A model generated the notes under the pieces. The model was not told where the DNA came from. It ran no database searches and saw only the letters and a program-made list of their open reading frames with translations. A stretch of DNA of 60,613 nucleotides from a virus. Its lineage: Duplodnaviria; Caudoviricetes. Of the stretch, positions 1 through 24,892 are shown piece by piece. The stretch's first letter is position 1. Every line of letters starts with the position of its first letter. The translations under genes were made by a program, and so were the position numbers. Where the stretch lies: positions 1 through 60,613 of IMG/VR virus record IMGVR_UViG_3300037440_000098. One strand, written 5' to 3'.

Positions 1-10
1 CTTCTGCATG

Positions 11-466: not shown

Positions 467-489
467 GACTCCCCTTCCTACGGTTACTT

Positions 490-538
490 GCGTCCCTACC
501 GCCCGACTCGAACGGGCTGTGTGCCTACACAGGGAGGG
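490..538 (-). ncRNA. minimal tRNA-like element A (acceptor-like stem, small hairpin, T-arm)
   Basis: T-arm GCCCG-TTCGAGT-CGGGC (501-517), hairpin TGTGT-AGGC-ACACA, closing CCCTCC/GGTAGGG with a bulge; intergenic. Confidence 0.55.
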
Positions 539-545
539 TGGTGGC

Positions 546-968
546 TCAGTTGAGGCTGTCGCCCCAGCGCCACCCGTTGGGACCGCTGGGCATCCCCAGC
601 TTGATGTAGCAGCCGTCACAGGCGAATTGCCCGGTGTCCCGGTTCAGCGTCCCCTCCTCCTGCCACACGTACTCGTCCGGGGTCAGCCCCTCGTTGGCCG
701 CGTAGTCCGGGATGCCGGGGATGGTTGCCGGTACTCGGCAGCACAGCCCGCAGTGCAGCTCCAGCTCTCGCACGTAGAAGGGGTCCACGAACTTGATCAG
801 ACCCTCGAAGGCCAGGTCAATGGACCTGCGCTCGTTGTGGTACCTCGGGTACTTGGACTTGTCCGCGTCCCCGATGACCTCGGCCCACGTCTCCTTGATC
901 TTGTCGATCATGGGCTGTGTGGTGCTGTGGTTGAAGCCGTCCGCGCGGTCGTGTCGGATCTCCGTCAT
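546..968 (-). CDS. hypothetical protein with two CxxC motifs (possible Zn-binding)
   Basis: CGLC and CDGC motifs; ATGA overlap with upstream gene. Confidence 0.75.
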   Translation of the reverse strand: MTEIRHDRADGFNHSTTQPMIDKIKETWAEVIGDADKSKYPRYHNERRSIDLAFEGLIKFVDPFYVRELELHCGLCCRVPATIPGIPDYAANEGLTPDEYVWQEEGTLNRDTGQFACDGCYIKLGMPSGPNGWRWGDSLN

Positions 969-1375
969 TGTCCCTGCCTCGCTTCCATGAATGCGTGTCT
1001 GCGGTACGGGTTATCCCACCCACGACCGTGTTCGGCCATGTGGTCGGGACGTATGCACAAGGGCTGATCGCATTCCGGCGACAGCTCCACGGACCGAGGC
1101 AGTTCCCGTACACACATGGCGTACAGAATCCGTCTCGCCTTACCTAGCTTGTGGTGCCCCCTACGGGCATCGATGTAGAACTCCGGGGCACCATTGCCGT
1201 CTGTCTTGCCCATCCACACCAAGCACCCGTCCGCCGTAGTCGGCAGACGTACCTTGGCCCACAGTCGGCGCTGTGCCTTCTCGCCGATCACTTCCGGCGC
1301 AACTTCCATGTCAGCCGGACAAGCCTGCCCAGCCAACAGCACGTGCACCCGTACTTGACAGCGTGGCCGAACCAC
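965..1375 (-). CDS. HNH endonuclease-like protein, probably degenerate (start may be 1309)
   Basis: RLWAKV..GCLVWMG..ARRILY..C..PLCIRPDHM pattern of phage HNH proteins, with His and Asn positions substituted. Confidence 0.65.
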   Translation of the reverse strand: MVRPRCQVRVHVLLAGQACPADMEVAPEVIGEKAQRRLWAKVRLPTTADGCLVWMGKTDGNGAPEFYIDARRGHHKLGKARRILYAMCVRELPRSVELSPECDQPLCIRPDHMAEHGRGWDNPYRRHAFMEARQGQ

Positions 1376-1385
1376 GTGTTGCCGT

Positions 1386-1814
1386 TCATCCTTCCTGGTC
1401 CTGTGCGATCAGGCAGTCTTTACGGTCGTCGGCGTGGACCGACACCCAGTGGTTCACGTCCGCGCCCTGGTCCGGGGTGTGGATGAACCAGAACAGGTTG
1501 GCCAGGTGATTGCCCAACCTGCCCTCCCTGAACTTCTCCAGCTCCGTGTACGCATTCGAGTGGATGTCCTGGTCCTTGAGCGCACCGAACACCAGTTGAA
1601 TGCGGTCGTTCTCGCCGTCGTCCTCGACGTCCAGCGAGCGAATGCCGTCTTCCCATACGTCGATGGCCTCGGCCAGGGTGGACGCGCAGTACACGTCCGA
1701 CTCGGGCAGGTATCCCGGCATGTTCTCGCCCACGTGGAAGTGTCCGGTCACCTCCCTGTAGTCGACCCGGTTGGTACCGATGTCCTTGACCGGCTTACTC
1801 AGGCTCACTGCCAT
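1386..1814 (-). CDS. hypothetical phage protein
   Basis: ORF with SD AGGGAG and high-GC3 codon usage. Confidence 0.75.
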   Translation of the reverse strand: MAVSLSKPVKDIGTNRVDYREVTGHFHVGENMPGYLPESDVYCASTLAEAIDVWEDGIRSLDVEDDGENDRIQLVFGALKDQDIHSNAYTELEKFREGRLGNHLANLFWFIHTPDQGADVNHWVSVHADDRKDCLIAQDQEG

Positions 1815-2074
1815 GTGTCCGACTCCCTCTTCTGCTTACGCCACGCGTGGTCACGTGCGTAGTCCATCATGCTGATGTTGGCCATGAGTCCCACCGCAAA
1901 GGCGGACGCGCCGACCATGAGTCCGCCGAAGAACATGAAGAACGAACTCACCGGGTCACTCACCCAATGCGAACCCACCATGCCACCTACGCCGATGACG
2001 ATACCGAGCGTGGCCCATGCCAGCACCCGACGTGTCGTCCTCTTGATGTTCTCGAACACCTCGTCGGTGTCCAT
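1805..2074 (-). CDS. small membrane protein (two TM helices)
   Basis: Two hydrophobic segments; SD GGAGGTGA. Confidence 0.75.
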   Translation of the reverse strand: MDTDEVFENIKRTTRRVLAWATLGIVIGVGGMVGSHWVSDPVSSFFMFFGGLMVGASAFAVGLMANISMMDYARDHAWRKQKRESDTWQ

Positions 2075-2086
2075 TCGATCACCTCC

Positions 2087-2135
2087 AGTGCCGTCCCTGG
2101 CCTTGCACCAGGGTGGGGGCTCGTTCCCCTACGGC
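2087..2135 (-). ncRNA. minimal tRNA-like element B (variant T-loop)
   Basis: GCCGT/ACGGC closing stem, GGGG-AACGAGC-CCCC hairpin, CCCTGG-TGCAAGG-CCAGGG arm, 3' ACT; intergenic. Confidence 0.4.
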
Positions 2136-2142
2136 GGTACTG

Positions 2143-2370
2143 CTACGGCCTGGTGTGCCGTCGTGCGAACTTCACCAGTGCCTCACCCTGCTTGACCGCG
2201 TCCTCGGTACCGACCGCTTCCGCCCCATCGGCGAACTTGAAGCGCGTCGTCTCCGTGGACTCGGCAGTGATCAGGGCATCCCCGTCCGTGATGTTGGCGT
2301 ACTCCGCCTCCAGTCGTTCCAGCTTGGACCGGTTGCCCCGCTCATGTGCATTCACGCTAGACCTCCACAC
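2143..2370 (-). CDS. hypothetical protein
   Basis: ORF in the minus-strand gene run; start uncertain. Confidence 0.6.
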   Translation of the reverse strand: MWRSSVNAHERGNRSKLERLEAEYANITDGDALITAESTETTRFKFADGAEAVGTEDAVKQGEALVKFARRHTRP

Positions 2371-2935
2371 TGGGCTGTACTGCCCACTCGGGAACCGTCA
2401 TGACCGGCCGCAGGTGCGCGGTACGGTCTGAGATCAGGCTCTCTCGGTACTCGGCCAGGTACTCAGGCGAACTGTCGTTGTCCGGGCTGGACTTCAGCCC
2501 CTCGATCTCCAGTTCCGCTTCGTCCCTGGCTCGCTGGTTGTGCTTCTCGACGTACAGCGCCGCCCGGTCCCAGTCCTGGAACGTCATGAAGGCGTGTTCG
2601 TCCGCGCCGTAACCCACGATGACCTGTGCCAGCAGCGGGTAGACCTCATCGGCCCACTCGGTACCCTCCTGCCCGTCGTTCTCCGGGTCGCGGTTGTCCG
2701 CGTAGACGAACGAGACCACGTTCCGGCCGTTGTTCGCACCCTCCAGAGTGGACCGCCATGCCACCTTGACCCGCGCGGTGAGCGTGTTCCCCTGGTTGAA
2801 CCCGACCATGATGCGGTCACCCTCGATCAGGTCACACGCGGGCCACCGCTTGGCCCAGTGCTCCCCCTTCTCCCGCTTGGGCAGCTCCGGAACCGTCAGC
2901 CGGATGGTTCCCCGCTCGCGTCCGTCGTTGCTCAT
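2357..2935 (-). CDS. hypothetical phage protein
   Basis: TAATG coupling with upstream gene; codon bias. Confidence 0.75.
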   Translation of the reverse strand: MSNDGRERGTIRLTVPELPKREKGEHWAKRWPACDLIEGDRIMVGFNQGNTLTARVKVAWRSTLEGANNGRNVVSFVYADNRDPENDGQEGTEWADEVYPLLAQVIVGYGADEHAFMTFQDWDRAALYVEKHNQRARDEAELEIEGLKSSPDNDSSPEYLAEYRESLISDRTAHLRPVMTVPEWAVQPSVEV

Positions 2936-3258
2936 TACGCCCCTCGTTCCTCGTTGATACCGCTACCGTCGCAGCCGTTGCACTTGCACCAGGCCACGTG
3001 AAGCTCACGCGGGTGATAGGCCGCCTGCCTGTTCCACGGCCCGTCATCGGACAGCATGTGAACGATGACCATCTCACTCCCGTACGTGTCCACCACGTCC
3101 CCCACGTAGGTGAAGCGAGCGCGAGCGGAATTGAATCCGCTCCCCGTCTCGCTCTCCATCAGGAAGTACGGACGTACCCGGACCCTCACGTCGTTGTCCA
3201 CCACCTCAGCCGGTGTCGCACCCTTGTGCGTCTGTGGCTTACGAAGACTCCACTTCAT
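2935..3258 (-). CDS. hypothetical protein with C-terminal CxCxxC
   Basis: SD GGGAG; coupled to the next gene. Confidence 0.7.
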   Translation of the reverse strand: MKWSLRKPQTHKGATPAEVVDNDVRVRVRPYFLMESETGSGFNSARARFTYVGDVVDTYGSEMVIVHMLSDDGPWNRQAAYHPRELHVAWCKCNGCDGSGINEERGA

Positions 3259-3261
3259 GAC

Positions 3262-3293
3262 TTGACTCCCACTTGTTGACTCCCACTTGTTGA
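3262..3293. repeat. 14-bp tandem duplication TTGACTCCCACTTG that duplicates the RBS region
   Basis: ttgactcccacttg ttgactcccacttg ttga. Confidence 0.8.
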
Positions 3294-3353
3294 CGTTCGC
3301 GCGGACAGTCGGGCAGAGGCACAGGGCCTCTACCCTCAGACCGTTACGACCGG

Positions 3354-3464
3354 TCAGAACACTTGCTGTGCCAGCCAGGCCAGTCCCAGCACGCTACCGG
3401 CGATGAGCACTACGAGAATCACCACGTAGAGTGTGAACATCACATAGATTACCTTGGGTACCAT
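3354..3464 (-). CDS. 36-aa single-TM membrane peptide (MVPKVIYVMFTLYVVILVVLIAGSVLGLAWLAQQVF)
   Basis: Translated by hand; SD AGGGGAG; below the ORF-track cutoff. Confidence 0.65.
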   Translation of the reverse strand: MVPKVIYVMFTLYVVILVVLIAGSVLGLAWLAQQVF

Positions 3465-3496
3465 GATTTCTCCCCTTGTTGACGGGTCTTGCTGAG

Positions 3497-3542
3497 TGCT
3501 CCGGGCAGGTATCGAGCCTGCCTTACGCCGCGCGGCCGGAGC
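3497..3542 (-). ncRNA. minimal tRNA-like element C
   Basis: 7-bp GCTCCGG/CCGGAGC acceptor stem, 14-nt linker, GCAGG-CTCGATA-CCTGC T-arm, then ACTCA. Confidence 0.6.
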
Positions 3543-3557
3543 TACCAGGCACAGGGC

Positions 3558-4451
3558 CTAGAAGAGTGCGATCTGTCGCGGCTTGGCCGGTACCGGGATG
3601 TCCGAGAACAGATGGTGCTTGACGATCTCCCGCAGGTCATCGGTCGTAGCGTCGATCCACGTACCGCACCCGTCCGCGCCGCAGTACCACTGCCACGAGA
3701 CGAGACGGTTGTGTTCCCGCTGCTCGATGTAGAACGTGGAGTCGTTCTCCCAGTAGGTCAGGTTCGCCACGTATTCCGGGTCGGTGTCGTCGTCCAGCTC
3801 CTCGTACTCCTCCGTCACGTCGGAGCTTCCGAAGGTTCGCCACCCTTCCCCGTCGGAGTTACGGAGCTTACCCAGCAGCCACGCGCGACACCCGGCGTGG
3901 TCCTCTTCCTCGTTCTTCCGGGCGTGCTCGCCGTCCGCGCAGTCGCAACCCTCCTCCGCGTAGCAGTTATACCCGTCCGGGTGGTTGGCCTCCCACTCCC
4001 GCTCGCTGTAGTCCTCCTCATCCAAGACCGGATAATCAGACAGCGCGTTGACGATGTCCATAGCGGCCTTGACCGATACCGCATCGTCCACCCGGATCAT
4101 GACCGACTCATTCCAGCCGTTCAGGCAGGAACCCTCCGTATGGGTCATGTTGCCGGGGTGCTCGGAGATGTGACCGAACGACTCGGCCTTTTCCATCTCC
4201 CGCTCGATCACGGACCAGTTCGATTCCGTACGAGCGTCGGCGTCCCTGTGCGTCCCGAGAGGAGTGGTCACGTAGACCACACCGGACGGCTGTCCCCATT
4301 CGTTGATGTCGTTCCGGTACCCGAACCCTCCCGACCAGTTACGCCGGAAGTTCTCGCGGTCCGATTCCGCACCCTGGCACTCACGAATGAAGTCGCCCAG
4401 CGACGATTCCATGATCCGCTTTGTCCTACGTGCGCGCGTACCCATGCCCAT
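3558..4451 (-). CDS. acidic, Cys-containing hypothetical protein
   Basis: 297-aa ORF with SD GAGGGAG. Confidence 0.8.
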   Translation of the reverse strand: MGMGTRARRTKRIMESSLGDFIRECQGAESDRENFRRNWSGGFGYRNDINEWGQPSGVVYVTTPLGTHRDADARTESNWSVIEREMEKAESFGHISEHPGNMTHTEGSCLNGWNESVMIRVDDAVSVKAAMDIVNALSDYPVLDEEDYSEREWEANHPDGYNCYAEEGCDCADGEHARKNEEEDHAGCRAWLLGKLRNSDGEGWRTFGSSDVTEEYEELDDDTDPEYVANLTYWENDSTFYIEQREHNRLVSWQWYCGADGCGTWIDATTDDLREIVKHHLFSDIPVPAKPRQIALF

Positions 4452-4512
4452 GATGACTCCCTCTTGTGTCGTGTGCCGTGATCGGCCATCCGTGCCGTAA
4501 TCGGCTGATGAG

Positions 4513-4559
4513 TGGACGGCCAGGGGTCGAACCTGGCACCCGGCCTTGACCGGTCGTCC
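4513..4559 (-). ncRNA. minimal tRNA-like element D
   Basis: GGACG/CGTCC stem, CCGGT-CAAG-GCCGG hairpin, GCCAGG-TTCGACC-CCTGGC arm, then ACTCA. Confidence 0.6.
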
Positions 4560-4566
4560 CGATGTC

Positions 4567-4956
4567 TCAGTAATTCAGGTCGGACAGTGACACGTCGAAC
4601 GGCTCCCCGTAGTGCCGACCCTGGAACAGCTCGGTGATCTTGATGGTCTTGCGGTCCACGACCGCAACCACCTTGACCCGCTCCCCGAAGTAGTACAGGG
4701 AGTCACCCTTTTCGATGTTGTGCTTTCCGGCAGTCGGGACCGTACCGAAGCCACACGCCGTCTTGAACTTGTCCCGGTCAAACCGACCATTGTCACGTCC
4801 GAACATGGACGCCAGACCCTCCATGACCTCACGCAACGTGGCTTCCTTGGCAGCCTTACGGACGGGGGTCTCGTATCGCGCGTACTTCCACGAATTCGCG
4901 ATGATCTCAGCGGCGCTCTCGTAGTCCTTACGGCTCATGCTCATGATGACTCCCAC
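4567..4956 (-). CDS. hypothetical protein (start probably 4944, MSMSRKDY)
   Basis: MSRKDY..NGRFDRDKF..AC motif typical of small phage proteins. Confidence 0.75.
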   Translation of the reverse strand: MGVIMSMSRKDYESAAEIIANSWKYARYETPVRKAAKEATLREVMEGLASMFGRDNGRFDRDKFKTACGFGTVPTAGKHNIEKGDSLYYFGERVKVVAVVDRKTIKITELFQGRHYGEPFDVSLSDLNY

Positions 4957-4995
4957 TGTGTAGCTTTTCTACTGCCGACCATGATTGGCCGGGCA

Positions 4996-5053
4996 TGGCG
5001 GAGGTGAGGGGAGTCGAACCCTTCCCGTAGGCCGATCCTGTATCGGCACCCCC
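4996..5053 (-). ncRNA. 58-nt D-armless tRNA-like element E with G3.U70 and encoded CCA
   Basis: GGGGGTG / CCGAT-ACAGG-ATCGG / CC-TACG-GG / AAGGG-TTCGACT-CCCCT / CACCTCC-G-CCA. Confidence 0.65.
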
Positions 5054-5059
5054 TGTGCC

Positions 5060-5677
5060 CTACGGGCACTCGGTACGAATCTCCGTGATCTTGCGCCCGC
5101 CCGGCTTACCGTCCTCGTCGCGGAACTGCACGACATACCGGCCGTCGTACCCGCACTTGGCCTTGAGCTTGTCCATGTTGAGCGGAACGGCCGTCACAGC
5201 TTCCCGGTAGTTGAGCGCTTCCCCCTTCAGGTAGTCGATCATCTCACCCTTGGTCAGACCCTGGTGTGTGATCTCATGCACCAGAACCGGACCAGCCGGA
5301 GCCGACCACATGCCGCCCATGTCACCCGCGATGTACAGCCCGTACGGGTGCTGCCGGTAGACCTTGAGGCACAGAGGCCGGTACTTGGCCGGGAACAACT
5401 TGCAGTCGCTCAGGTGGTTGTGCTTGACCGGCTTAGCCATAGCGACCGGAGCCGTAGGCGCAGCCATCGGCGCAGGCTCCGGGGTCTGTGCCTTGTCCGG
5501 ACCACACGCGGTCAGCAGCACCAGAGCGGCCACGATGATCATGGCGACCGCCGCCGGGGCCATCATTCCGAGGAATTCCCGGATCGGACCGCGCACGTTG
5601 GGCACGTGCTCTACCCCCGTAGCCACGAATCCCGTACGCCCGTCCACCTTGACCGGTCGTGTGTAGTCAATGCTCAT
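5060..5677 (-). CDS. putative lipoprotein or membrane-anchored protein
   Basis: Hydrophobic helix ending in lipobox-like LLTA-C, then a Pro/Ala linker. Confidence 0.65.
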   Translation of the reverse strand: MSIDYTRPVKVDGRTGFVATGVEHVPNVRGPIREFLGMMAPAAVAMIIVAALVLLTACGPDKAQTPEPAPMAAPTAPVAMAKPVKHNHLSDCKLFPAKYRPLCLKVYRQHPYGLYIAGDMGGMWSAPAGPVLVHEITHQGLTKGEMIDYLKGEALNYREAVTAVPLNMDKLKAKCGYDGRYVVQFRDEDGKPGGRKITEIRTECP

Positions 5678-5750
5678 CTTTCCGACTCCCCTTGTCCGTG
5701 GGATTGATCTTGTTCAGTCTCTGCCTGTGGCCCCGTGTGGCGCGTTGTGC

Positions 5751-5789
5751 GCCGCGCGGGAGGGTTGGGGCCGTCACCTCCCGCGCGGC
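5751..5789 (-). terminator. 13-bp stem hairpin, probable terminator or processing site
   Basis: gccgcgcgggagg...cctcccgcgcggc. Confidence 0.55.
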
Positions 5790-5814
5790 TGTCTGTGGTG
5801 CCGTTCTGTCTCGC

Positions 5815-6852
5815 CTAGCGGGTGGCGCGCCGCGCCGCCGCCGCGCGGGACGCACGGGCCTTGTTCGTCTCGACCTGCCGACGGTACCGACGCTGCTGAG
5901 TACGAGTCAGGTTGTCGTACTCATCCTGTGTCATGAAGCCATGACGACCGCCCACGGTGGGAATTTCTACCGAGCGCTTGTCCGTCTGCTCACGACCCAA
6001 AGGAGCGTCCATGGTGGTGGATACCGGCTTGCCACCCTCGGCACGTTCCTTGGGTCCGGTCACCTTGTCCGCGTCCATGGCCTTACCGCGAGTGAGGGAC
6101 GTACGACCGGGCAGCATTCCCGCACGGGCACCCCCGATCATGTCGTCTGCACCCTTGTGCGCACTGTCCACGGTGGCCGGTGCTGCCGGAGCTTCTGACC
6201 CAACCTTGACTTCCGTCAGACCCTCCGACTTAGGCGCACGACCGGCCACCCAATGCGCAGTCATGACCATGGTTCCGTCGTGATCCTTCATGGGACCAAC
6301 CCATGAGCACGCACGGCACACACCGGTTCCGTCGCCGTTCTCCAGACCGGGCGCGTTCGCGATGCACTTGACCTCTCCGACCGGCTTGTCTGTCTTGGCC
6401 GCTTTCTTGGCCTTACCCTTACCGGCTTTCTTGGCCTTGACCGGCTTTTCCGTGGATTCCGACAGTTCGGCCACAGTCGCCGCGCCGTCCATGGTGATGA
6501 TCACCGCGTCCGGGTCGCTCATGATCATGTCCGCTACGGTCGGCCCGTTCTCCAGTGCTGCCGCCGCTTGTGTCGCACTCTCCAGAGCATCGGCATACCC
6601 GAGCGATTCCGACCACTTGACGCACCGCTTGCACTGTGCGTCACCGGTGAACTTGCCCACCATGCGCGCCGTTTCCAGCGTCTTACCCGACGCGCAAACG
6701 ATCTCCACCGTTTCGGAGTTTCCCCCGATGTGGTCACCGCCGAGCGTGATCACGCTGGACATGATCATGTGGCCGACACCCTTTTCGTACCCGAACCATC
6801 CGGGGGTACCGTCAAGGGTCAACGCCATTTCCAGCTTGCTCCGACTGCTCAT
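5815..6852 (-). CDS. hypothetical protein with CxxC motifs, Lys-rich patch and Arg-rich tail; first gene of the leftward operon
   Basis: ORF trimmed to ATG 6852 behind GAAAGCGGGAG. Confidence 0.75.
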   Translation of the reverse strand: MSSRSKLEMALTLDGTPGWFGYEKGVGHMIMSSVITLGGDHIGGNSETVEIVCASGKTLETARMVGKFTGDAQCKRCVKWSESLGYADALESATQAAAALENGPTVADMIMSDPDAVIITMDGAATVAELSESTEKPVKAKKAGKGKAKKAAKTDKPVGEVKCIANAPGLENGDGTGVCRACSWVGPMKDHDGTMVMTAHWVAGRAPKSEGLTEVKVGSEAPAAPATVDSAHKGADDMIGGARAGMLPGRTSLTRGKAMDADKVTGPKERAEGGKPVSTTMDAPLGREQTDKRSVEIPTVGGRHGFMTQDEYDNLTRTQQRRYRRQVETNKARASRAAAARRATR

Positions 6853-7913
6853 GACTCCCGCTTTCCGGGCCGTTATCGGCCCTAGTCGCACCACTCCCCA
6901 TGGCGGAGAGGGTCGCAGAGGCACACGGGCGCACTAGTCCCCTAGCATTTCGGGAACCGTCCGTGACTATGGTGCATTGGCATAGCGCAACAGAGCGTTA
7001 CCGTCGCTTTCCAATGCCCGTGTGCCTTTGACACCCTCCCCGTAGCGCTACCGCACTACGGTTTGGGTGCGACTTTTCGTAATCCGGCCCTAGTTCCCTA
7101 CGTAGGTAGGGAATCGTTGGCCATGTGAGGGGAGCAAGGTTCGTATCCCATGCCTACGCCACGAATTACCGCCGTTGTCAGCGTACGTGACGCATATGGT
7201 TTGTCAACCCTCACACGTTCCTACCGTGCGACCGTGTTCGGTGCACTCTCCGGTTTACAACCCGTGGGCATTCTTCCCGTAGGTAGGACTGTTACGCGTT
7301 CCGTACTAAGGCCATGTCCGTTATCCCGTTCTAGTCGCGTACTTTGCTCGCACCATGTTCCACACTCTCAGCCGTAATCGGCCAATGCATGTGGTCATCA
7401 TGTGACGTTCGCTTTCCGCGTCATGTACTAAGGCAGACACGACCGTTTCAGGTCGCTAGTCGCATACACACTGTGGTCACGGCCCTTGCGTCTCCCGACG
7501 CGCGCCGATCCTGTCAAACAACGGAGGCACACAGCCTCGCTAACGCCATTGCCCAAGGGTCGCCCGCCGTAGTCAGCAGTGCTACCTACGCTCGCTTGTG
7601 CCATGTCCGTGTTCGGCCATGTGTACCGCGCTGCGTCGCATGTGCGCTTGTTTCGCACCACCTACGCCTAGACCAGCCGCCCGAGCGGGAATATCGCTCG
7701 GAAGTCATGGCGCACGGCCATGTGTGGCCATGTTGTGTGATGCGGGGGTGTTGCTGTTGTGGTCGTGTCCCGAGCACTCATACGCTCACTGGCGCTTGCC
7801 CGCCCTGCCTGTGTTGCGCCCACCGTGTTCGGCGGGGTGTTGCTGAGGAGGACTATCCGGGTTTCCGGTGACGACCGCAACCCCCAATCTCAAATGATCA
7901 TGGAATTGGGTGC

Positions 7914-8148
7914 GTTTTGCCTGGTCAGAGCCCTAAAAATTTTTTCACGCAGCCTCGATCTCGTGTCCGAATTGGGGTGGGTATGTCCTGAGATCGGTGT
8001 GAGGGACATATCGGACACCAGGCAAACCGGGACATGCTGACTGTTTTGGCTGGTCAGATGGGGTGTCCCGCCAGTAACTTGACGACTCGTCAGATCCGGC
8101 CTGACGACCTGTCAGGCACAGGACGGCGGGCTCGTTTTGGCTGGTCAG
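7914..8148 (+). repeat. three direct copies of GTTTTG(G/C)CTGGTCAG
   Basis: Copies at 7914-7928, 8043-8057 and 8134-8148. Confidence 0.75.
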
Positions 8149-8300
8149 GTGGGGTGGAGACAGGTATGGGGAGGAAATGGGACAGAAGGGATTGTTACTC
8201 GTGGGTTGTCTTACATCGTGAGACGCGAAAATGACCGGATGGTGAGACAAACAGGGGTGCAGTGCGCTGACCTGGGGTTATACGCGCGTAGACGAATTTT

Positions 8301-9490
8301 GTGAATGCCCGAATTTGACGAGTATGCGTGTCCAATGGTGAATCAGACTCTATTCACCACGAGTGAATAGGGTCATATTCCTTTTCGTTATAAACGACGT
8401 GAGCTGCGGTTATGGTCCCTATTCACTAAAAGCTGTAGCTAATTCACCGAGGAATACCGCTCGGTAATAGTGAATAGGATATAGCAAACTCTCTAATCTA
8501 TATAAGAGTTATATATTTAATTATAGTGAATAAGGTGGGTAGAGCTGTACCTTATTCCTATTCACTACGGAGAGATTAAGAGAGGGTCTAGGCGACACGC
8601 ATTTTTGCTACGACAATTCGGACACCTATGGTGAATAGCGTTTCCGTTATGGGTGTTGTAAGTAACGAGCCGTTATCAAATTGGGCCTTGTTCACTACAA
8701 TCATGGTGAATATGGCGTTGTTCACTGCAATGGTGAATGCGGCGTTATTCACTTGGGTGAATAGGGAATAAGGTAGGGCGGCTGTAGTGAATAGGGTATG
8801 AGTGACAGGTGAATATGGCGTTGTTCACCTCGATGAATAAGGCCATAGCCAATGGTGAACAAGCCGATATCTGTAGCGTATTCACTGTTTTGGTGGTGAA
8901 CAAAGGATGCCGCTATTCACGGTCGTTGGTATCGGGCCGGTAACAGTTTTGATTGTCACCGTTATGTACGTTATTCACTACGGGAAGGGTGAATACGGCC
9001 TAGGTGAATATGGCGTTATTCATTGTTGGGTGCGCGTGAAATAGGTAGTCGTTATTCACGTGCTAGTGAATGTGGCTGTATTCACTAGGGATGTGGTGAA
9101 TACGGTCATGGTGAATAACGTCAATGGTGAATAAGGTATAGTGAATAGGTGTATTTCACTAGCGCGAGAATTGACGCTGACATGACACGTGATGTGAATA
9201 GGCATGTGGTGAATAAAGCCTATGTGAATACGCGCACGGCTCTGTGCCTATTCACACCCTGACTACAATAGGTGTATTACCCATGCATGTAGGTGAATAG
9301 CATAGTCACTATTCACTGCTAATGGTGATGTGACACATAGTCAGAGTGAAGTGATGCAGCATCAGATGAGTGAATTGGAATGCTCGCAGCAATGGCGCAG
9401 CAATGGCCGTGTGCCTATTCACTCGATAATGTAGGTGAATAGGGATGGAATGAATTCGAGTGAATAAGAAACCACGTGAAATGCCGGTGT
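8301..9490. repeat. AT-rich array of GTGAATA/TATTCAC heptamers; candidate origin or packaging region
   Basis: About 32 exact copies counted by eye plus variants, in both orientations; very AT-rich core at about 8488-8532. Confidence 0.85.
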
Positions 9491-9623
9491 GAAAAACCAT
9501 ATTCAGTACCCAATTCTGATAAAAGCTGGGTGGTGATACCTATGTGTCCATCAATGCGAAATTTTTCCTGGCTGCGACATCTACACGGATTTGTCCCATT
9601 TGTAACGCGGTATGCTCAGGAAC

Positions 9624-10292
9624 ATGGACACTCTCACCGAAGAACTCGTCACGCTGCGGGCCAAGGGCCGCACGTGGGCGCAGATCGAGGCAGAGTCGGG
9701 GATTCCGGCGGCGCAGGCTGCTGTGCGGGTGCAGGAGTACCTGCGTACGAGTTACACCGACACCACTGTCACCGATGCGCGCCAGCTCCAGATCAGGCGG
9801 CTGGAGATGTTGATGGGCTACCTGTGGGAACAGGTAGAGCCAGGCGACTTCCTGACGCAAGGCAGGAACACCACCAACCTCATCAACGTCATTCAGCAGG
9901 TCACCGACCTGCTCGACCTCAAGAGCGACCGACTGCGAGATGCGCAGATACAGCTCACCCAAGAACAGGGTGGACTCATTCTGGTGCTTCTTCAGGCTGT
10001 ACAGGCAACGCTCATGGAAGACATCCTGAGCCTGCTGACCGCGCAATCCGAGTACAACGCCAACACCGGCAAGCGTGGGATAGAGGACATCACCGGCTTC
10101 CGCGCCACGCTCGAACGTGACTGGAGCGGGTGGTTCGCCAGCGCGGCCGACAAGGCGCTCGATGAGGCCGGAGCCGACAGCAACAGCGCGACTGCTTCGA
10201 TGCAGCACGAGCTGGCCCGACCGCGCACCTCAGTACCCGGCAACACCATCAAGGGCGAGATCACAAGGGGAAGGTCGGGCAACCGTGGCTAA
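9624..10292 (+). CDS. putative terminase small subunit (N-terminal HTH); alternative start 9612
   Basis: LVTLRAKGRTWAQIEAESGI HTH-like segment; position upstream of the large terminase. Confidence 0.65.
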   Translation: MDTLTEELVTLRAKGRTWAQIEAESGIPAAQAAVRVQEYLRTSYTDTTVTDARQLQIRRLEMLMGYLWEQVEPGDFLTQGRNTTNLINVIQQVTDLLDLKSDRLRDAQIQLTQEQGGLILVLLQAVQATLMEDILSLLTAQSEYNANTGKRGIEDITGFRATLERDWSGWFASAADKALDEAGADSNSATASMQHELARPRTSVPGNTIKGEITRGRSGNRG

Positions 10293-10581
10293 GGGAGACG
10301 GAGCGGCCGGACACAACATCGACCGGGCTTTGTACCAGCCGGAGAAGCAGAAGCCGGTCATAGACAAGCTCGGAGCCATGGTGGGCAACGCCATCGCGTG
10401 GGATGGCTGTGTGCCTGACACCACGCCGTGCGGGGCCTGTGCAGCCTGTCGGCATCGCGCGTCCGTCCGTGTGGTCGGCGAGGCGCTGGAGGACGAGGCA
10501 CACGCCCCGTGGACGCTTCAGGAGACAGCGCGGGTGCTCTGCGCGCTCGGGCTGAAGCTGGACCGCCAGGAGGCCGCGTGA
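10285..10581 (+). CDS. small CxxCxxC protein between the terminase subunits
   Basis: GTG 10285; PCGACAAC motif; TGATG overlap with terL. Confidence 0.6.
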   Translation: MAKGDGAAGHNIDRALYQPEKQKPVIDKLGAMVGNAIAWDGCVPDTTPCGACAACRHRASVRVVGEALEDEAHAPWTLQETARVLCALGLKLDRQEAA

Positions 10582-13130
10582 TGGCGATCGACCCGACGAT
10601 CAGGGCACAGCTCAAAGCTGAGTTCGCGCAGGCGAAGAAGGCTTCGAACTACGCCAAGGACCCCGGCTTGTGGGCGAAGGACAAGTTGGGGGTGCATCTG
10701 TGGTCGAAGCAGCAGAACATCACCGACTCGGTGCGTGACCACAAGCGCACGGTGGTCGCGTCATGTCACGGTTCGGGGAAAGCGCTTACCCTGGATACGC
10801 CGCTGCGGAAGCCCAACGACACGTGGACGACCATGGGAGACGTGCGGGTAGGGGATTGGCTCTGCGACGAGCAGTACCGACCCACCCAGGTGGTCGGAGT
10901 AACAGCCGTCGAGGAGCGCAAGACCCTTGAGGTGTACTTCATCCACACCAACCGGCCCGAGCCGGGCACATCACCCACGGGCATGGGGACTCCTGCGGTA
11001 CTCGTAACCAGCCATGAGCATGAGTGGCAGGTGCTGGGCAGCCAAGAACGTAGCCGCATCCAGGTGATCTGCGGCCGTCACGGCATCAAGCAGCCTGACT
11101 GGTCTTACTGGATGCACCGCACCGAGACCATGGAGAGCATGGGCATGGCGCGGAGGGTAAGCAGGTTTGCTGGGATGCAGGTGGACCGGCCGCTCGTGCC
11201 AGCAGCGCGGCATCTCCAGACGGCGCACAGCTACGGCATCAACCTGGCGACGTTCGGGAACGCCCATGTGGACGACCTCTTCGAGCGGTTCGGCGGAGCC
11301 GACGCACAGGGCCGTCTGTGCCTTCGTGTGCCGGTCAATCTGCCCTCGGGGGCGCTCACCGAGAAGGGCAGGAAGGACGCGGGGATACCGCAGCAGATCA
11401 CGAAGGCGCGGGAATGGCTGGGTCAGGCCGGACACAAGACCATTCTGAGCAAGGAACGTAAGGGCTACACCCTCACGTTCACCTTGAGCATCACCTCGGA
11501 CCCGCGTCCTCTGCTGGCTGAGTTCGTGCCGAATGGGTACGACGGCGGCATGGGCCTCAACGTGGACGACATCCAGGCCATCATCCTCAATGCGTGGGAT
11601 GAGCGGAATGGGATCAAGCCATTGGGTGGGTGGTTGCTGGCGAGGGTAGATCACGGACGGCCGCAGAAGGTCAAGTGCGTGGAGGTAGACGGCGACAGCC
11701 ACATCTACCTGGCCGGACGTAACGACGTGCCCACCCACAACAGCATGATCGCGTCGGTCATCGCGGCGTGGTGGGTGGATGTACACCCGCCTGGCACCGC
11801 CATCGTGGTCTCGACTGCGCCGACGTACGCACAGGTCCACGCCATTCTGTGGGAAGAGATCAGGAAGCACCACGCTACAGCCAAAGACCGCAGCATGGCG
11901 CTGCCAGGCACCATCACCATGGCCGACAACTGGAACCTGGCCAGCGGTCAGATCGTCGGGTTCGGGCGCAAGCCCAAGGATGGGGACCGACACGCCTTCC
12001 AGGGCATCCACCGTAGGTACGTGCTGGCCATTCTGGACGAGGCATGTGGCGTACCAGAGGAACTGTGGACTGGTGCGGAGGCGATCACCACCAACGAGGG
12101 GTGTCGCATCCTGGCCATCGGGAACCCGGACGACCGAGAGACGGAGTTCGGTAAGAACTTCTGCGACCCGGCCACGGCACAGGACTGGAACAGGATCAGC
12201 ATCCCTGCCAGCTCGACACCGAACCTCACCGGTGAGCCTGTGCCTCCGCTGCTGAACGAGGTGCTGGTCTCCAAGGCGTGGTGCGACGAGCGCCTTCGTG
12301 CGTGGGGAGAAGACGACCCGAGGTACATCTCGAAGGTCTTGGCCGAGTTCCCCGAGGCGAACGCAGCCAGCCTGTTCTCACCCACCGTCATCGCCACCGC
12401 GTTCGAGGAAGCTGGCCGAAAGCTGGACGGACCGCCGTTCACGCTTCAGTTCGGGGTGGACGTGGCCAGGTACGGCGGCGACCTCAACGTCCTCACCATG
12501 TTCGACGGGGTACGCGCCACCATCCTCGACTCGTGGGGAGGCACCGACACCGTGTCTTCGGCAGGTCGTGTGCTCATGCGGGTGGCGGAGGAAGTCAAGG
12601 ACCGCAAGGCACAGCACGCTGACATCCGCGTGGACGCGGTCGGCCTCGGTGCTGGTGTGGTGGACACCCTGGCTGCGCGGCGGGCGGAGCTGGAACAGGA
12701 ATTGCTGCCTGCGGGAATGCAGCCGTGGTTCACGGTGCGAGAGATGCACGGGTCGGCGGCGGCCCCCAAGGATGTGGGTGGCTCGATCCAGGGCTATGGC
12801 AACGCTCGTGCATGGTGGTACGACCAGCTCAAGCACCTCATGCGGTCTGGTGCCATCGAGATCGTGGAACACGCTCTGCTCAAGGACGAGCTGGGCGGAG
12901 TCCGGTACGAGTACAAGAACGGTAAGCTGTACATCGAAAGCAAGGAGGACATCAGGAAGCGCAACGGGAAGTCGCCGGACTACACCGACAGCCTGGTTTA
13001 TGCGACAGCTCCTGTGCATGAAGGGCTTTCGCCAGGTGACACAGTGTCAGAAGACGCTCACAGCCTGGCGGTTGCTGAGTTCGATCTCGAAGCGGAGATG
13101 CTGCGCGACATCAGCATCTCGCCATTCTGA
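10581..13130 (+). CDS. terL: terminase large subunit containing an intein
   Basis: Walker A SCHGSGK|S, Walker B AILDEACG, LAIGNP, nuclease GVDVARYGGD, SPDYTDSL. Confidence 0.95.
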   Translation: MAIDPTIRAQLKAEFAQAKKASNYAKDPGLWAKDKLGVHLWSKQQNITDSVRDHKRTVVASCHGSGKALTLDTPLRKPNDTWTTMGDVRVGDWLCDEQYRPTQVVGVTAVEERKTLEVYFIHTNRPEPGTSPTGMGTPAVLVTSHEHEWQVLGSQERSRIQVICGRHGIKQPDWSYWMHRTETMESMGMARRVSRFAGMQVDRPLVPAARHLQTAHSYGINLATFGNAHVDDLFERFGGADAQGRLCLRVPVNLPSGALTEKGRKDAGIPQQITKAREWLGQAGHKTILSKERKGYTLTFTLSITSDPRPLLAEFVPNGYDGGMGLNVDDIQAIILNAWDERNGIKPLGGWLLARVDHGRPQKVKCVEVDGDSHIYLAGRNDVPTHNSMIASVIAAWWVDVHPPGTAIVVSTAPTYAQVHAILWEEIRKHHATAKDRSMALPGTITMADNWNLASGQIVGFGRKPKDGDRHAFQGIHRRYVLAILDEACGVPEELWTGAEAITTNEGCRILAIGNPDDRETEFGKNFCDPATAQDWNRISIPASSTPNLTGEPVPPLLNEVLVSKAWCDERLRAWGEDDPRYISKVLAEFPEANAASLFSPTVIATAFEEAGRKLDGPPFTLQFGVDVARYGGDLNVLTMFDGVRATILDSWGGTDTVSSAGRVLMRVAEEVKDRKAQHADIRVDAVGLGAGVVDTLAARRAELEQELLPAGMQPWFTVREMHGSAAAPKDVGGSIQGYGNARAWWYDQLKHLMRSGAIEIVEHALLKDELGGVRYEYKNGKLYIESKEDIRKRNGKSPDYTDSLVYATAPVHEGLSPGDTVSEDAHSLAVAEFDLEAEMLRDISISPF
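10782..11741 (+). mobile_element. class 3 intein (320 aa) inserted in the Walker A motif
   Basis: Starts ALTLDTPL; block B TSHEHEW; block F VKCVEVD; ends VPTHN before Ser+1. Confidence 0.9.
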
Positions 13131-14843: not shown

Positions 14844-14883
14844 GACGAGCCCCGGCTGAGTTCCTACCAGCCGGGGCTTCGTC
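14844..14883. terminator. bidirectional terminator between convergent genes
   Basis: agccccggctg...cagccggggct. Confidence 0.7.
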
Positions 14884-15781
14884 ATGCCTGCCGTCGTCGG
14901 TGCTCCTCCTGGATGGCCAGAGCCACCAGGCTGAACTTGTCCAGAACCGACTTGATCTGCTCTCGCAGGCCAAGCGAGTAGCAGTACAGCAGCCAATCCT
15001 CGTAGCTGTCTTCCCGCCGTGGGCGAGTCATGAGAAGAGTGGACGGCGGTGTCGGACGTACACCGCGCATCCGCATCATGGCTTCGCGCTCCAGGGCAAC
15101 TCGGTCGTACTCACGCTTCAGCTCGACGTTCGGGCCATAGTGCGGGTTCGACTCGCGAAGTCCGGGATTGTGGTACAGGTGAACCAGCGGGATGTGCTCG
15201 TACCGCAGGTGCGGACCGAGGATGGTGTCGGCACACACGCCAAACGCCGAGTCCTCTGCGCCCCAGCCGGTGAAGCGTGGATCGAATCCACCAGTAGCCA
15301 GGAAGTGCTGCACAGAGATGACGAAGAGGCCGCCGCCCGCCATGCCTCGGTAAGAGCCACGGACGAGCGGGCTCGTCGGCACCTTCAGGCGCGGGCCTGG
15401 CTGGCGCTTCAGCAGCTCCGCAGTGGGCTCCGCACGGAGACGGAGCACACGGCCGTGCGGGACGATCCACGGGGCGACCACGGCCTGCCTCGCGGCCGTC
15501 TTGAGCCGGTCGGCCAGCGGGAACACGTCGGTGTCGGAGACGACGACCACCTGAGCGCCCATGGCCTTGGCCAAGTTGACCCCGTAGTTGATGGCGGTCG
15601 GCTTGTTCCACTTACCTCCGCCACCATCGGTGTGGATGAGATCCCATTCGGGATGCATCTCCGCGTACCATTCGGTGACCCATGCCTTGCTGCGCTGCCT
15701 GTCCTCATCGCCCTGGTCCTTCCAGGGGAAGACGACGGCGACCTGTGGATCTGTGTCCTCGCCGTTGATGAGGTCCGTCAT
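14882..15781 (-). CDS. glycosyltransferase (GT-A fold, GT2/GT7-like)
   Basis: VVFPW, SDTD (DxD), GGFDPRFTGWGAED, HLYH. Confidence 0.88.
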   Translation of the reverse strand: MTDLINGEDTDPQVAVVFPWKDQGDEDRQRSKAWVTEWYAEMHPEWDLIHTDGGGGKWNKPTAINYGVNLAKAMGAQVVVVSDTDVFPLADRLKTAARQAVVAPWIVPHGRVLRLRAEPTAELLKRQPGPRLKVPTSPLVRGSYRGMAGGGLFVISVQHFLATGGFDPRFTGWGAEDSAFGVCADTILGPHLRYEHIPLVHLYHNPGLRESNPHYGPNVELKREYDRVALEREAMMRMRGVRPTPPSTLLMTRPRREDSYEDWLLYCYSLGLREQIKSVLDKFSLVALAIQEEHRRRQA

Positions 15782-16386
15782 GCCGCCCGCTCCAGCACAG
15801 CGAAGCGGTCGCTGTCCTCGTGGTACACGGAGAAGATCCAGTCTCCGTACTCCAAGGTGTCCTGGACCAGCTCCTTCACGGCGCGGTTTACCTGCGGCGA
15901 GTTGTAGTCATCGAAGACCATGTACCCGCCGATGCGAACCTTGGCAGCCCACAGCTCGATGTCTTTCTTGACCATCGGGTACTTGTGGCTGCCATCCACG
16001 TAGATCATGCCGACCGGACTCGGAGAGTTCCAGCGCTTGGCCGCGTCCTCGCTGAACCCGTGGAACTCGGTGATCTCGTGCGTCATGCCGCACTTGACGA
16101 CGTTCTCGCGGAACAGCTCGTGTGCCTGTGCGCGCGTCTGCGCGATGGTCAGGCCGGTGCCGGTGATTGGCACATCGAGCAGTTCCCACGGGTCCACGCT
16201 GTACAGGTGGAGAATGCCGGGGTGCTTCTGGATACCGCGACCCATGAAGCATGAGGACTTCCCGGTGAAGGGACCGATCTCGATGACGCAGTCGCCTGCG
16301 GTCAGGTTGGAGATCATGGCTTCCAGGAAGATGCCATCCTCATTGCGGATCAGACCCGGTACGTTCTCGGGCTTCTTGTATGCCAT
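15778..16386 (-). CDS. class I SAM-dependent methyltransferase (Methyltransf_24-like)
   Basis: VIEIGPFTGKS, YSVDPW, IYVDGSHKY, GGYMVFDDY. Confidence 0.88.
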   Translation of the reverse strand: MAYKKPENVPGLIRNEDGIFLEAMISNLTAGDCVIEIGPFTGKSSCFMGRGIQKHPGILHLYSVDPWELLDVPITGTGLTIAQTRAQAHELFRENVVKCGMTHEITEFHGFSEDAAKRWNSPSPVGMIYVDGSHKYPMVKKDIELWAAKVRIGGYMVFDDYNSPQVNRAVKELVQDTLEYGDWIFSVYHEDSDRFAVLERAA

Positions 16387-17063
16387 TACAGTGCCTCCAG
16401 CACGTTGAGAAGTCGTTCCTGCGCGAGGCCGAATCCGTCGGTCACGCCCATCGCGTAGTCCACCCACTTCAGGTCACCACCGATGACCTTGTGGTACGGC
16501 AGCCGCATTGCCGGGATGCCCAGCGACTCGGCCACGATCAGGCCGTGCAGACTACTGCTCAGGATGCGGTCGCACTTACTGATCTCCCAGATGACCTCGT
16601 GCGGCGGAGCCGTCACGTCGATGACCACGTCGGCGTAGGAGAAGGCGCGGTTGTCGATGTAGTGCGGCACAACGCCCAGCCTCTGTGCCTGACGCGGAGC
16701 TGTCTCATAGAGCGTCCCGGCCAGAATGCCGGGGTCACCCAGCGGGATGTCGCCGATGTTGTGCTTGCTGCTCTCGTTCAAGGCACGTCGTGTGAGTTCA
16801 CCACGCAGCGCCCTGATGTCGAGGTGCTTCACGTTCGGCAGTGGCTTCAAGCCCATGTGCATGGAGCCCACCCCGGCGACGATGCAGCCACGCGGTGCCA
16901 CGGTCAGCTTCTCCAAGATGGAGCCGCAAACGGCCACCTCCGCTGTTTGCGGCGTGGCGCGAACCACGTTGTGCCCCAGACGACGGAGGATGTCCGGCCC
17001 CAGCTCGTCACCGAAGTTTGCGACGCCCGGCTTGTCCCATGCGTACACCGCGAGGGTGCTCAT
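16386..17063 (-). CDS. polysaccharide pyruvyltransferase family protein
   Basis: NFGDELGP, GSIL, ALRGELT, GDPGIL, GVVPHY, SSSLHGLIVAESLGIP. Confidence 0.88.
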   Translation of the reverse strand: MSTLAVYAWDKPGVANFGDELGPDILRRLGHNVVRATPQTAEVAVCGSILEKLTVAPRGCIVAGVGSMHMGLKPLPNVKHLDIRALRGELTRRALNESSKHNIGDIPLGDPGILAGTLYETAPRQAQRLGVVPHYIDNRAFSYADVVIDVTAPPHEVIWEISKCDRILSSSLHGLIVAESLGIPAMRLPYHKVIGGDLKWVDYAMGVTDGFGLAQERLLNVLEAL

Positions 17064-17694
17064 TCCTTTTTCTCCCATGCGTCGAGTAGAAGTAGTGCTC
17101 TGCGTAGATGTTTCCCTTGTACCGCAAGGCGGCCTTGTTGACCGAACCCATTTTGGTGCGGGGGTGGAATGCAGGTGACGGCACCAGCGTGACACAGCTC
17201 GGGCGGAAGTGCGTGTTCCTGATGTGATCGAACAGACCCGCTCCTGTCTTCTGCCACGAAGGATGGATGTAGTCACCCACTTCGCAGAGGTGGCCGACGT
17301 AGGACTGCATCACCGCGTTACCCGGCTCGCAACCCATCGCGGCGTTCTGTGACCTGTTCGGATCGTGAGGAGACTGACTGATCCACATCTTCGAGCCCAT
17401 GAAGGGCGCACCCTGCATAGTCTTGATGCAGACCATATCGGCGTCGATGTAGACGCCACCCTCAAGCATCAGGATCAGCACACGAGCGACGTTGACCGCA
17501 CCGCAGTAGCGCTCATCGGCGATGTACTGGTCGTAGACCTTCCTGGCTCCGGTCGGCCAGGCCAGTTGATCTATGTCTTCCTCACGCCAGAGCCGGTAAC
17601 CCCAGGCGGGATGCATCTCAGGCCAGGTATCACACCAGTCAGTCGGCACAGGGTCAGGACCGATCCATACCTGATGGATGTATTGCGGGATCAT
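17008..17694 (-). CDS. DxD glycosyltransferase (GT32-like)
   Basis: MIPQYIHQVWIG, HPAWGYRLW, EGGVYIDADM. Confidence 0.88.
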   Translation of the reverse strand: MIPQYIHQVWIGPDPVPTDWCDTWPEMHPAWGYRLWREEDIDQLAWPTGARKVYDQYIADERYCGAVNVARVLILMLEGGVYIDADMVCIKTMQGAPFMGSKMWISQSPHDPNRSQNAAMGCEPGNAVMQSYVGHLCEVGDYIHPSWQKTGAGLFDHIRNTHFRPSCVTLVPSPAFHPRTKMGSVNKAALRYKGNIYAEHYFYSTHGRKRNEHPRGVRMGQAGRRKLR

Positions 17695-17737
17695 TCCCAG
17701 CTCCTTTTCCCTGGATTACGGGTCTATTATTCAGCAC

Positions 17738-24831: not shown

Positions 24832-24892
24832 CGGACCTCCTCTCGTCGGTCCTATGGTATCCGGCCTCGACCTGACGAGCATGACGCACCCG

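Follow-up and report, generated by a model that had tools for sequence, protein, structure and literature searches.

An array of GTGAATA heptamers in the uncultured soil phage genome IMGVR_UViG_3300037440_000098 (Duplodnaviria; Caudoviricetes) probably forms the body of a direct terminal repeat (DTR) that assembly has collapsed to a single copy, and would serve as a docking field for a lineage-specific DNA-binding protein that would also act at a promoter gap among the tail genes. We place the probability of this reading at roughly 60%. The whole record of 60,613 bp, here called the window, was analysed, and the case is built on the array itself, on its positional homology to mapped DTRs of cultured phages and on the co-variation of the repeated motif at two distant loci. 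A first-pass annotation of the same DNA had described the array; the second cluster of sites at 24893–25228, the non-coding gap at 6925–9611 and the correspondence with DTRs go beyond it. The coordinates of the features are collected in Table 1.

GTGAATA or its complement, TATTCAC, occurs 42 times in the window, whereas 100 dinucleotide-preserving shuffles gave 1.98 copies on average and never more than 7, none of them reaching 42. Where the first-pass annotation had counted about 32 exact copies in the array there are exactly 32; nine others form the second cluster and one lies elsewhere. With one mismatch allowed, 8290–9500 holds 48 sites (30 on the + strand, 18 on the − strand), the commonest variants being GTGAACA (5) and GTGAATG (3), and over 40 exact sites from both clusters the consensus extends to RGTGAATAnGG. 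The 20-bp inverted pairs proposed earlier are also real: GTGAATA-N6-TATTCAC, with at most two mismatches, is found at eight sites in the window as against none for a reversed-pattern control, and seven of the eight start within the array (8338, 8363, 8706, 8733, 8809, 9004 and 9066), the other at 25152. Neighbours in the order + then − are offset by 13 nt in 6 of 14 cases, and same-orientation neighbours by 14–16 nt in 6 of 19. Tandem Repeats Finder reports a period of 16 (3.6 copies) at 9094–9147, over the first of the direct runs claimed at 9096–9141 and 9194–9224, both of which are present, and a period of 27 (2.5 copies) at 8684–8753. Over the array as a whole no periodicity was found (best Fourier power 3.2, at period 14), so that the suggested 15-bp phasing holds for the local runs only. 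Nor is the array a CRISPR, as had been concluded before, its unit being 7 bp, in both orientations and at spacings of 7–72 bp, as against CRISPR repeats of 24–40 bp in one orientation, with unique spacers of much the same length between them. The AT-rich core recognised at 8488–8532 has a GC content of 0.18, and of all 45-mers in the window the one starting at 8479 is the lowest in GC; the array as a whole has a GC content of 0.44, compared with 0.55–0.69 in every 500-bp bin outside the island. The array is real and functional-looking. The occurrence of palindromic pairs together with single half-sites argues for protein binding, and the look of a platform for a DNA-binding protein, ascribed to it before, is supported.

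The array recurs at 95–99% identity in contigs of three other metagenome samples, with, for example, three differences over 477 nt (8756–9232) and two over 304 nt (9105–9408), and it is about as conserved there as the flanking coding DNA. All 12 variable positions within 8301–9490, among those listed, fall outside exact heptamers, and beyond those listed there are a further 129 differences across 5500–11500; that variation spares the exact heptamers is suggestive only. A contig of run X2 that skips 8298–8465 was treated as unreliable, as it has only 23 nt on one side.

The closest cultured relatives of the window phage are the Streptomyces phages of cluster BM (Satis, JustBecause, Kela and Frankenweenie). 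Its large terminase (TerL) is 46.7–47.1% identical to theirs over the full length, and of 150 matching GenBank phage records only seven, all of them BM, cover at least 80% of the query. It is a TerL of long form, whose N-terminal region of about 370 residues is matched at full length in those seven records alone, the remaining relatives matching from residue 358 or later, or as two separated pieces. The portal is 42–43% identical to that of the BM phages, and the small terminase-like (TerS-like) protein finds seven GenBank records, again all BM (37–43%), annotated 'DNA binding protein'. No near-identical DNA was found among GenBank phages. For Satis and JustBecause, the physical ends have been located from read pile-ups and a two-fold coverage, and the DTRs measure 1,049 and 1,043 bp (PMC6687918); the accessible text on Frankenweenie gives a DTR of 1,038 bp (PMC10652959). 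We confirmed exactly identical genome ends of 1,049 bp in Satis, 1,043 bp in JustBecause and in Kela, and 1,038 bp in Frankenweenie; all full-length matches to the TerL of the window come from this cluster, in which the DTRs are short (1,038–1,049 bp). The next cultured relatives, the Arthrobacter phages of cluster AQ (TerL 37.5%, portal 36%), have DTRs of 1,584 bp according to the accessible part of their description (PMC5513430). Amigovirus genomes were rejected as guides to the layout, being too divergent and having a gene-containing DTR.

The BM DTRs are non-coding, have a GC content of 0.55–0.58 in genomes of about 0.666 (PMC6687918), and show a GC skew of +0.16 to +0.24; in the unique non-coding DNA that precedes them the skew is close to zero. 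Each also carries a motif array of its own, with eight copies of AGGCAGG in Satis, seven of GAATGCA in JustBecause and in Kela, and nine of GCGGGAG in Frankenweenie, and GGAATGCA occurs five times per DTR copy in JustBecause and once in the remaining 182 kb. No description of motif arrays in these DTRs was found in the main texts of the literature searched; the announcement of Satis and JustBecause gives the DTR lengths and no arrays (PMC6687918), and so does the accessible text of the Frankenweenie paper for its DTR (PMC10652959). In the window, the heptamer array lies in the single large non-coding gap of the genome, 2,687 bp between the leftward gene arm and the terS-like and terL genes, as delimited by a crude, GC3-based gene call. 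The last leftward gene before this gap codes for a protein of 369 residues, homologues of which (34–38% identity over about 100–160 residues) are encoded by the last large gene ahead of the right DTR in all four BM phages, and are also present in the uncultured relative G001, introduced below. The island is thus syntenic with the BM DTRs, with the gene of the 369-residue protein on one side and TerS-like and TerL on the other.

Evidence for the position of the ends comes from short boxes, here called class I, which stand near the ends of the mapped DTRs. On the left, CAGGTCAG is found at DTR position 42 in three of the four BM phages, with an inverted copy at 91, and inexactly in the fourth. 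The window has CTGGTCAG in direct orientation at 7921, 8050 and 8141 and inverted once at 8267 (left box CWGGTCAG), and its positions 8260–8274 are identical over all 15 nt to positions 84–98 of the Satis DTR; the three direct copies, and a spacing unlike that in the BM phages, leave this boundary ambiguous. On the right, a box GAAAACCA starts 42 nt ahead of the DTR end in all four BM phages. This exact 8-mer is absent from the entire window, which has a homologous box at 9491 instead, at the end of the G-skewed domain. The right box aligns across five phages, and is also present in G001 (locus L006, position 6766), at position 3 of locus L008 and twice near the right edge of the island of locus L027. 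The cumulative G-minus-C curve peaks exactly at this box both in the window (9491) and in G001 (6766). Since the boundary boxes and the left-neighbour gene are shared and the G-skew ends at the right box, we read the island as a collapsed DTR. Its right end is predicted at about 9532–9533 and its left end between about 7880 and about 8180, for a length of about 1.35–1.7 kb, and the whole heptamer array falls inside it. The change-point of the skew was discarded as a locator of the left end because in the Satis and JustBecause controls it does not fall at the true left end; with three direct boxes besides, the left end cannot be placed more closely.

Similar islands are found in uncultured relatives. 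TerS-like has 32 relatives at E ≤ 0.001, several of them on contigs of 56–60 kb; a single-sequence search of IMG/VR gave no close relative, and an alignment search gave five loci. The islands in the relatives reached by the alignment search are 1.2–1.9 kb long, of low GC and G-skewed, and share the class I boxes, while each has an interior motif of its own (Table 1). The pattern, as judged from these sequences, is one of conserved boundaries and an interior motif that turns over by lineage. The relative G001 is a 61,050-bp contig whose TerL and TerS-like proteins are 64% and 60% identical to those of the window, and its island has a comparable AT-rich stretch, with one GTGAATA copy, at about 5800–5850 of locus L006. 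That island also contains a 73-residue ribbon-helix-helix reading frame (FitA/Arc-like; L006 5329–5547, − strand), which scores 26.2 bits, below the cutoff of 27. As neither the window nor nine other loci have a homologue of it, it is not a general binder. In the island of L027 (3400–4900, on a BM-like contig of 153 kb) TGATCAT is present 12 times and GATGATC 11 times, making it dense in GATC; these motifs are reminiscent of the pac site of phage P1, which has methylation-sensitive TGATCA hexamers.

The second cluster extends these observations to a distant locus. It has nine exact GTGAATA copies and lies in a divergent gap of 511 bp between a tail-fibre gene (22066–24882, − strand) and the connector and tail operon, which begins at 25394; its 20-bp palindrome at 25152–25171 is perfect. 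Since the capsid operon runs towards the tail-fibre gene, we take the gap to house the promoters of both flanking units, the tail-fibre gene and the tail operon. In G001, GAATTAG occurs 14 times in 61 kb, 11 times in the island, three times in the syntenic late gap and nowhere else. The late gaps of the window and of G001 align in conserved blocks, with the GTGAATA-type sites of the one in register with the GAATTAG-type sites of the other, and the 20-bp palindrome of the window aligns with TTGAATTAG-CTAATTCAA of G001. Such concerted change of the motif at two loci far apart points to a single co-evolving, phage-encoded binder, and in our comparison of the two genomes one such protein that reads the motif at both loci seems the best explanation. 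No second cluster was found in the BM phages or in the uncultured relative G002, and the feature therefore belongs to the lineage of the window and G001.

Other observations were made at or around these sites. Three further intergenic gaps contain isolated heptamers or near-heptamers (3433, 13192 and 59309); one of these sites, an exact GTGAATAGGGG, precedes the start of the gene 58961–59293 (− strand) by 15 nt. The + strand reading frame 59506–59874 was considered as an autoregulated regulator beside the 59309 site and rejected, its translation looking spurious. Upstream of the connector gene (window 25230–25350; G001 locus L012, about 1640–1760) there is a conserved leader with a well-conserved block, GTAGCCTGGCCCC ... 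CCCCGGTCGC.GTGGC.GCCCTTGTCCGTGGGCA, followed by a hairpin that keeps its pairing although the two phages differ in the sequence of the stem, and then by TCTGCTG. Rfam matches to it were sub-threshold only (F6, with 26.7 bits where the gathering score is 46). A terminator, an attenuator and a structured 5′ leader are all conceivable here.

Taken as a DTR, the island would be present at both ends of the virion DNA, one copy being left after assembly of the metagenome. The class I boxes, CWGGTCAG at the left end and GAAAACCA at the right, would probably position the terminase cuts, and the interior would provide 32–48 operators for a lineage-specific, probably dimeric, phage-encoded protein, which would also occupy about ten sites over the gap with the tail-fibre and tail-operon promoters. 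The resulting nucleoprotein complex would probably mark or organise the concatemer junction and the ends of the genome, and so serve packaging, end handling or both; it may also be linked to late-gene control.

The adjacent TerS-like protein, whose gene is 135 bp upstream of terL, is one candidate for the heptamer binder. An AlphaFold2 model (mean predicted local distance difference test score, pLDDT, 69) has an N-terminal three-helix helix-turn-helix (HTH) followed by long helices. Foldseek gave no match to this model at E ≤ 0.001, and a profile search of the PDB gave a chance match only (E 0.61); with VIA-align, residues 1–47 match three kinds of HTH equally well, those of sigma region 4, of LuxR-type proteins and of the small terminase of phage G20C (Z 7.1). 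The protein has no match in Pfam and a weak one, 'DNA binding protein', in PHROGs. Its putative recognition helix is IPAAQAAVRVQEYL in the group of the window and IPAQSAAVRVSDYL in that of G001. The class I boxes seem more natural targets than the heptamers for a protein so conserved. Ahead of its own gene, a conserved GTCCCATTTGT is followed by a TAnnnT hexamer (TATGCT or TACATT) 7 nt before the ATG at 9624 (window 9590–9626; L006 6895–6925), an arrangement that would suit the promoter of a leaderless mRNA.

Several points weigh against the DTR reading or against its binder. In the BM phages the DTR is about 4–5 kb of genes away from the TerS-like gene, a layout not identical to that of the window, and these relatives are distant (37–47% protein identity). 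The left boundary is ambiguous, owing to the three direct boxes and to a skew change-point that fails in Satis and JustBecause. The data of all ten runs found are assembled contigs. The four runs aligned to the window show no ends, and the contig of the source sample crosses the island at a flat per-contig depth, a measure that carries no information on ends. The second cluster, far from the ends and lacking in the BM phages and G002, is unexpected for a pure packaging signal. As for the binder, the TerS-like recognition helices of L025 and L026 are identical while their arrays are partly different, those of Satis and JustBecause differ conservatively while their arrays are unrelated, and no further sequence-specific DNA-binding protein was recognised by Pfam and PHROGs scans of the open reading frames (ORFs) of the window.

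The alternative that ranks next is a regulatory operator field independent of the ends. The gap would be the divergent early/late control region, a phage transcription factor would act on the late operons (terS-terL-lysin and tail), and the many extra sites would form a sink that sets a threshold or a timing. In its favour, the second cluster lies exactly over the gap in which alone the tail-fibre gene and the tail operon can have their promoters, the two loci of G001 show a joint change of motif with sites in register, the array ends about 150 bp upstream of terS-like, and isolated sites are present in the three other intergenic gaps given above. On the other hand, some 40 sites in 1.2 kb far exceed what the control of a promoter needs, sigma-70-type promoter sites are not enriched in the gap (1 found, 3.4 expected), and the homologous BM islands are mapped DTRs to which the motifs are confined. 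We consider this alternative unlikely as a full account, and it is in any event compatible with a DTR rather than exclusive of it; the same is true of the packaging-initiation platform and of the protein sponge that the first-pass annotation had put forward. A variant within the DTR reading, which we regard as doubtful, is that the genome ends themselves act as a regulatory sink, one protein being shared between about 40 operators per DTR and about ten at the tail gap.

The iteron-like origin that the first-pass annotation had listed first is not supported, and has the least in its favour among the options given there. In such an origin the heptamers would resemble iterons or DnaA boxes, with the AT-rich core of 45 bp serving for unwinding. 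The core is indeed the lowest in GC of the window (0.18) and has a comparable counterpart in G001, the sites are dense and in both orientations, GTGAATA corresponds to the central seven of nine positions of the reverse-complemented E. coli-type DnaA box TTATNCACA, and the GC skew changes sign at the gap. The flanks of the sites, however, are unlike a DnaA box (a 5′ T in 3 of 40 and a 3′ A in 12 of 40), and the motif is different in every relative (GAATTAG, GGAATGCA, AGGCAGG, TGATCAT, ATGGTTGC), which makes a conserved host initiator unlikely. Iteron origins have direct repeats of about 17–22 bp in helical phase, an adjoining initiator gene and an AT-rich unwinding element; the array has the AT-rich element alone, its core units being of 7–10 bp, irregularly spaced, in both orientations and without periodicity or an adjoining initiator gene. 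The replication genes (polymerase, primase-helicase and others) are at 42.7–57.6 kb, the switch in skew coincides with the switch in gene strand, and an origin leaves the second cluster at a late promoter unexplained. We therefore judge an origin improbable as the explanation of the array, although one could coexist with the DTR or lie inside it. Least probable of all, and in our view very much so, is a headful pac site, on which TerS would oligomerise while the terminase cuts nearby to give permuted, terminally redundant DNA: the array is directly upstream of terS-like and terL, its local 14–16-bp same-orientation spacing would suit the neighbouring HTH domains of a ring and circular assemblies fit permuted genomes as well as collapsed DTRs, but the long-form TerL is matched at full length only in phages with fixed ends and short DTRs, the AQ phages likewise have DTRs in what is accessible of their description, and the boundary boxes stand at a fixed distance from mapped ends. 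Look-alikes of host-regulator sites (PhoP boxes, the CRP-type TGTGA-N6-TCACA, the ECF −35 element GGAAT and the DnaA box) were rejected, as their spacing or flanks do not fit and the motif varies between relatives.

The gene content of the window is that of a lytic siphovirus, near-complete at about 60.6 kb. The rightward genes code for TerS-like, TerL, an endolysin, the portal, a protease, the capsid, connector and tail proteins and the tape measure (Pfam, PHROGs), and the leftward genes at 40.9–60.3 kb for a family A DNA polymerase, a primase-helicase, a Cas4-like exonuclease, an SNF2 helicase, and RecT-like and HU-like proteins; small leftward genes occupy 1–6924. The ORFs, scanned against Pfam and PHROGs, gave neither an integrase nor a repressor. 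The first 127 nt of G001 are equal to its last 127, an overlap that means a circular assembly. The window and G001 are collinear throughout, and the ends of the window are 4.2 kb apart on the G001 map compared with 4.9 kb across the ends of the window. As G001 is circular and the ends of the window are neighbours on it, the window is essentially a whole actinophage genome opened at an arbitrary point, and the completeness estimate of 32% attached to both records is misleading.

In the non-coding gap neither a tRNA nor an Rfam family was found (6925–9611), and the sign of the GC skew changes there together with the gene strand. Next to the heptamers the gap holds another repeat family, GTTTTGSCTGGTCAG, in three copies. 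Its first part, 6925–7880, is about 1 kb of normal GC (about 0.58–0.60) without a convincing ORF, tRNA or Rfam match; the BM phages have 1.5–1.9 kb of similar unique non-coding DNA ahead of the right DTR. This part may be home to early promoters or to uncharacterised RNAs. Elsewhere in the window, a minus-strand block (14882–17694) with genes for a glycosyltransferase, a methyltransferase and a polysaccharide pyruvyl-transferase-like protein is inserted between the lysin and the portal, and four HNH or His-Me homing endonuclease-like genes are scattered (965–1375, 26380–26862, 42279–42722 and 49697–50113). ARAGORN calls a tRNA without a definite identity and with a four-base anticodon (ttag) at 56109–56185 (− strand), beside a tRNA-Ile at 55685–55760 (− strand); a tRNA of the frameshift- or stop-suppressor kind is conceivable, and so is a mis-call.

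Table 1. Features of the window, and interior motifs of the islands in uncultured relatives
Feature	Coordinates	Strand	Details
Last leftward gene	5815–6924	−	369 aa; CxxC pairs, Lys/Arg-rich stretches
Predicted DTR	7880–9533		Collapsed to one copy in assembly; GC 0.47, skew +0.23, non-coding
Class I boxes	7914–8274		GTTTTGSCTGGTCAG at 7914, 8043, 8134; inverted CTGACCTG at 8267
Heptamer array	8351–9466		32 exact GTGAATA/TATTCAC copies (20 +, 12 −)
AT-rich core	8488–8532		GC 0.18; flanking motif copies at 8470, 8526, 8559
Adjoining palindromic predicted operators (20 bp)	8706–8752		8706–8725, 8733–8752
Further array palindromes	8338–8357, 8809–8828, 9004–9023, 9066–9085		
Same-orientation runs	9094–9230	+	14–16 bp apart: 9096, 9111, 9127, 9141; 9194, 9209, 9224
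Right-end box	9491–9499	+	GAAAAACCA
TerS-like DNA-binding protein	9612–10292	+	222/226 aa; start probably 9624; N-terminal HTH, long helices
Large terminase, long form	10428–13130	+	N-terminal extension of about 370 aa; real start probably later than 10428
Portal	17678–19327	+	Pfam/PHROGs
Capsid	20781–21992	+	Pfam/PHROGs
Second cluster	24893–25228		9 exact GTGAATA copies; palindromes at about 24925–24943, about 25109–25127, and 25152–25171
Tape measure	29384–34045	+	Pfam/PHROGs
HU-like protein	59837–60304		
Interior motif, G001			GAATTAG, inside GTGGAATTAGG / CTAATTC
Interior motif, G002 (L025)			GGCATGGTTGGTTGC
Interior motif, L026			TGGCAGGAATGGTTGC
Interior motif, L027			TGATCAT / GATGATCTTG

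Short terminal repeats of actinophages are routinely given as a length alone. If the collapsed DTR is the right reading, they are here a structured, non-coding element across a family that takes in the BM cluster, the window phage and at least four uncultured relatives; its boundary boxes are conserved, and its interior is made up of lineage-specific arrays that evolve fast. The boxes permit the prediction of ends in metagenome-assembled genomes of this family, the 20-bp palindrome is a handle for finding the protein that would read the phage genome ends, and the use of the ends for packaging specificity, end protection or gene timing becomes testable. Were the ends to act as a sink, the protein would be titrated by the number of ends, free or packaged, which would tie the expression of late tail genes to replication or packaging, and the fast co-evolution of motif and protein would amount to a private 'end code' for each lineage, possibly serving packaging specificity among co-infecting relatives.

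Among known systems, the sites of small terminases (the R sites of lambda cosB, the P1 pac hexamers and SPP1 pacL and pacR) are repeated short sites beside the terminase genes, bound by an HTH small terminase. They number about 3–10 within some 200 bp or less, as against 32–48 over 1.2 kb in the window, and we know of none that recurs at a late promoter; the class I boxes fit such a role better than the GTGAATA array does. The heptad arrays bound by omega of pSM19035, the OB sites of RK2 KorB and the binding of phi29 p6 at genome ends are cases in which one protein uses arrays of short sites in both orientations for DNA handling as well as transcription control. In the window, by contrast, sites are spaced 13–17 bp apart rather than as contiguous heptads, the host of the array is a lytic phage and not a plasmid, and the Pfam and PHROGs scans of its ORFs gave no ParA/ParB-type or p6-like gene. 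Iteron origins of plasmids and phages resemble the array in having clustered repeats beside an AT-rich stretch, but the units of the window are shorter, in both orientations, and have neither helical phasing nor an adjoining initiator gene. The closest functional analogue in print, as far as the accessible text of that report goes, is the untranslated repeat region (injection-stop-signal) of the left terminal repeat of phage T5, which is better conserved than the neighbouring genes and for which DnaA binding has been proposed (bioRxiv 10.1101/866236). The likeness is one of analogy, without sequence or protein homology: as described there, the T5 repeat is about 10 kb long, carries genes and has heterogeneous elements, unlike the single heptamer of the window, and the role proposed for its region is in two-step DNA transfer. 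The BM-cluster DTRs are nearer in kind, being non-coding, low-GC, G-skewed stretches of about 1 kb with the same right-end box, boxes of the same kind on the left and their own motif array, next to the same left-neighbour gene and in genomes with homologous TerS-like, TerL and portal proteins. The genome of the window is three times smaller (about 61 kb compared with 184–200 kb), and its island, with predicted ends, is longer (about 1.35–1.7 kb) and abuts terS-like directly. The motif, too, is different and far more regular than in the BM DTRs, with 32 exact copies and palindromic pairs, and it has a second locus.

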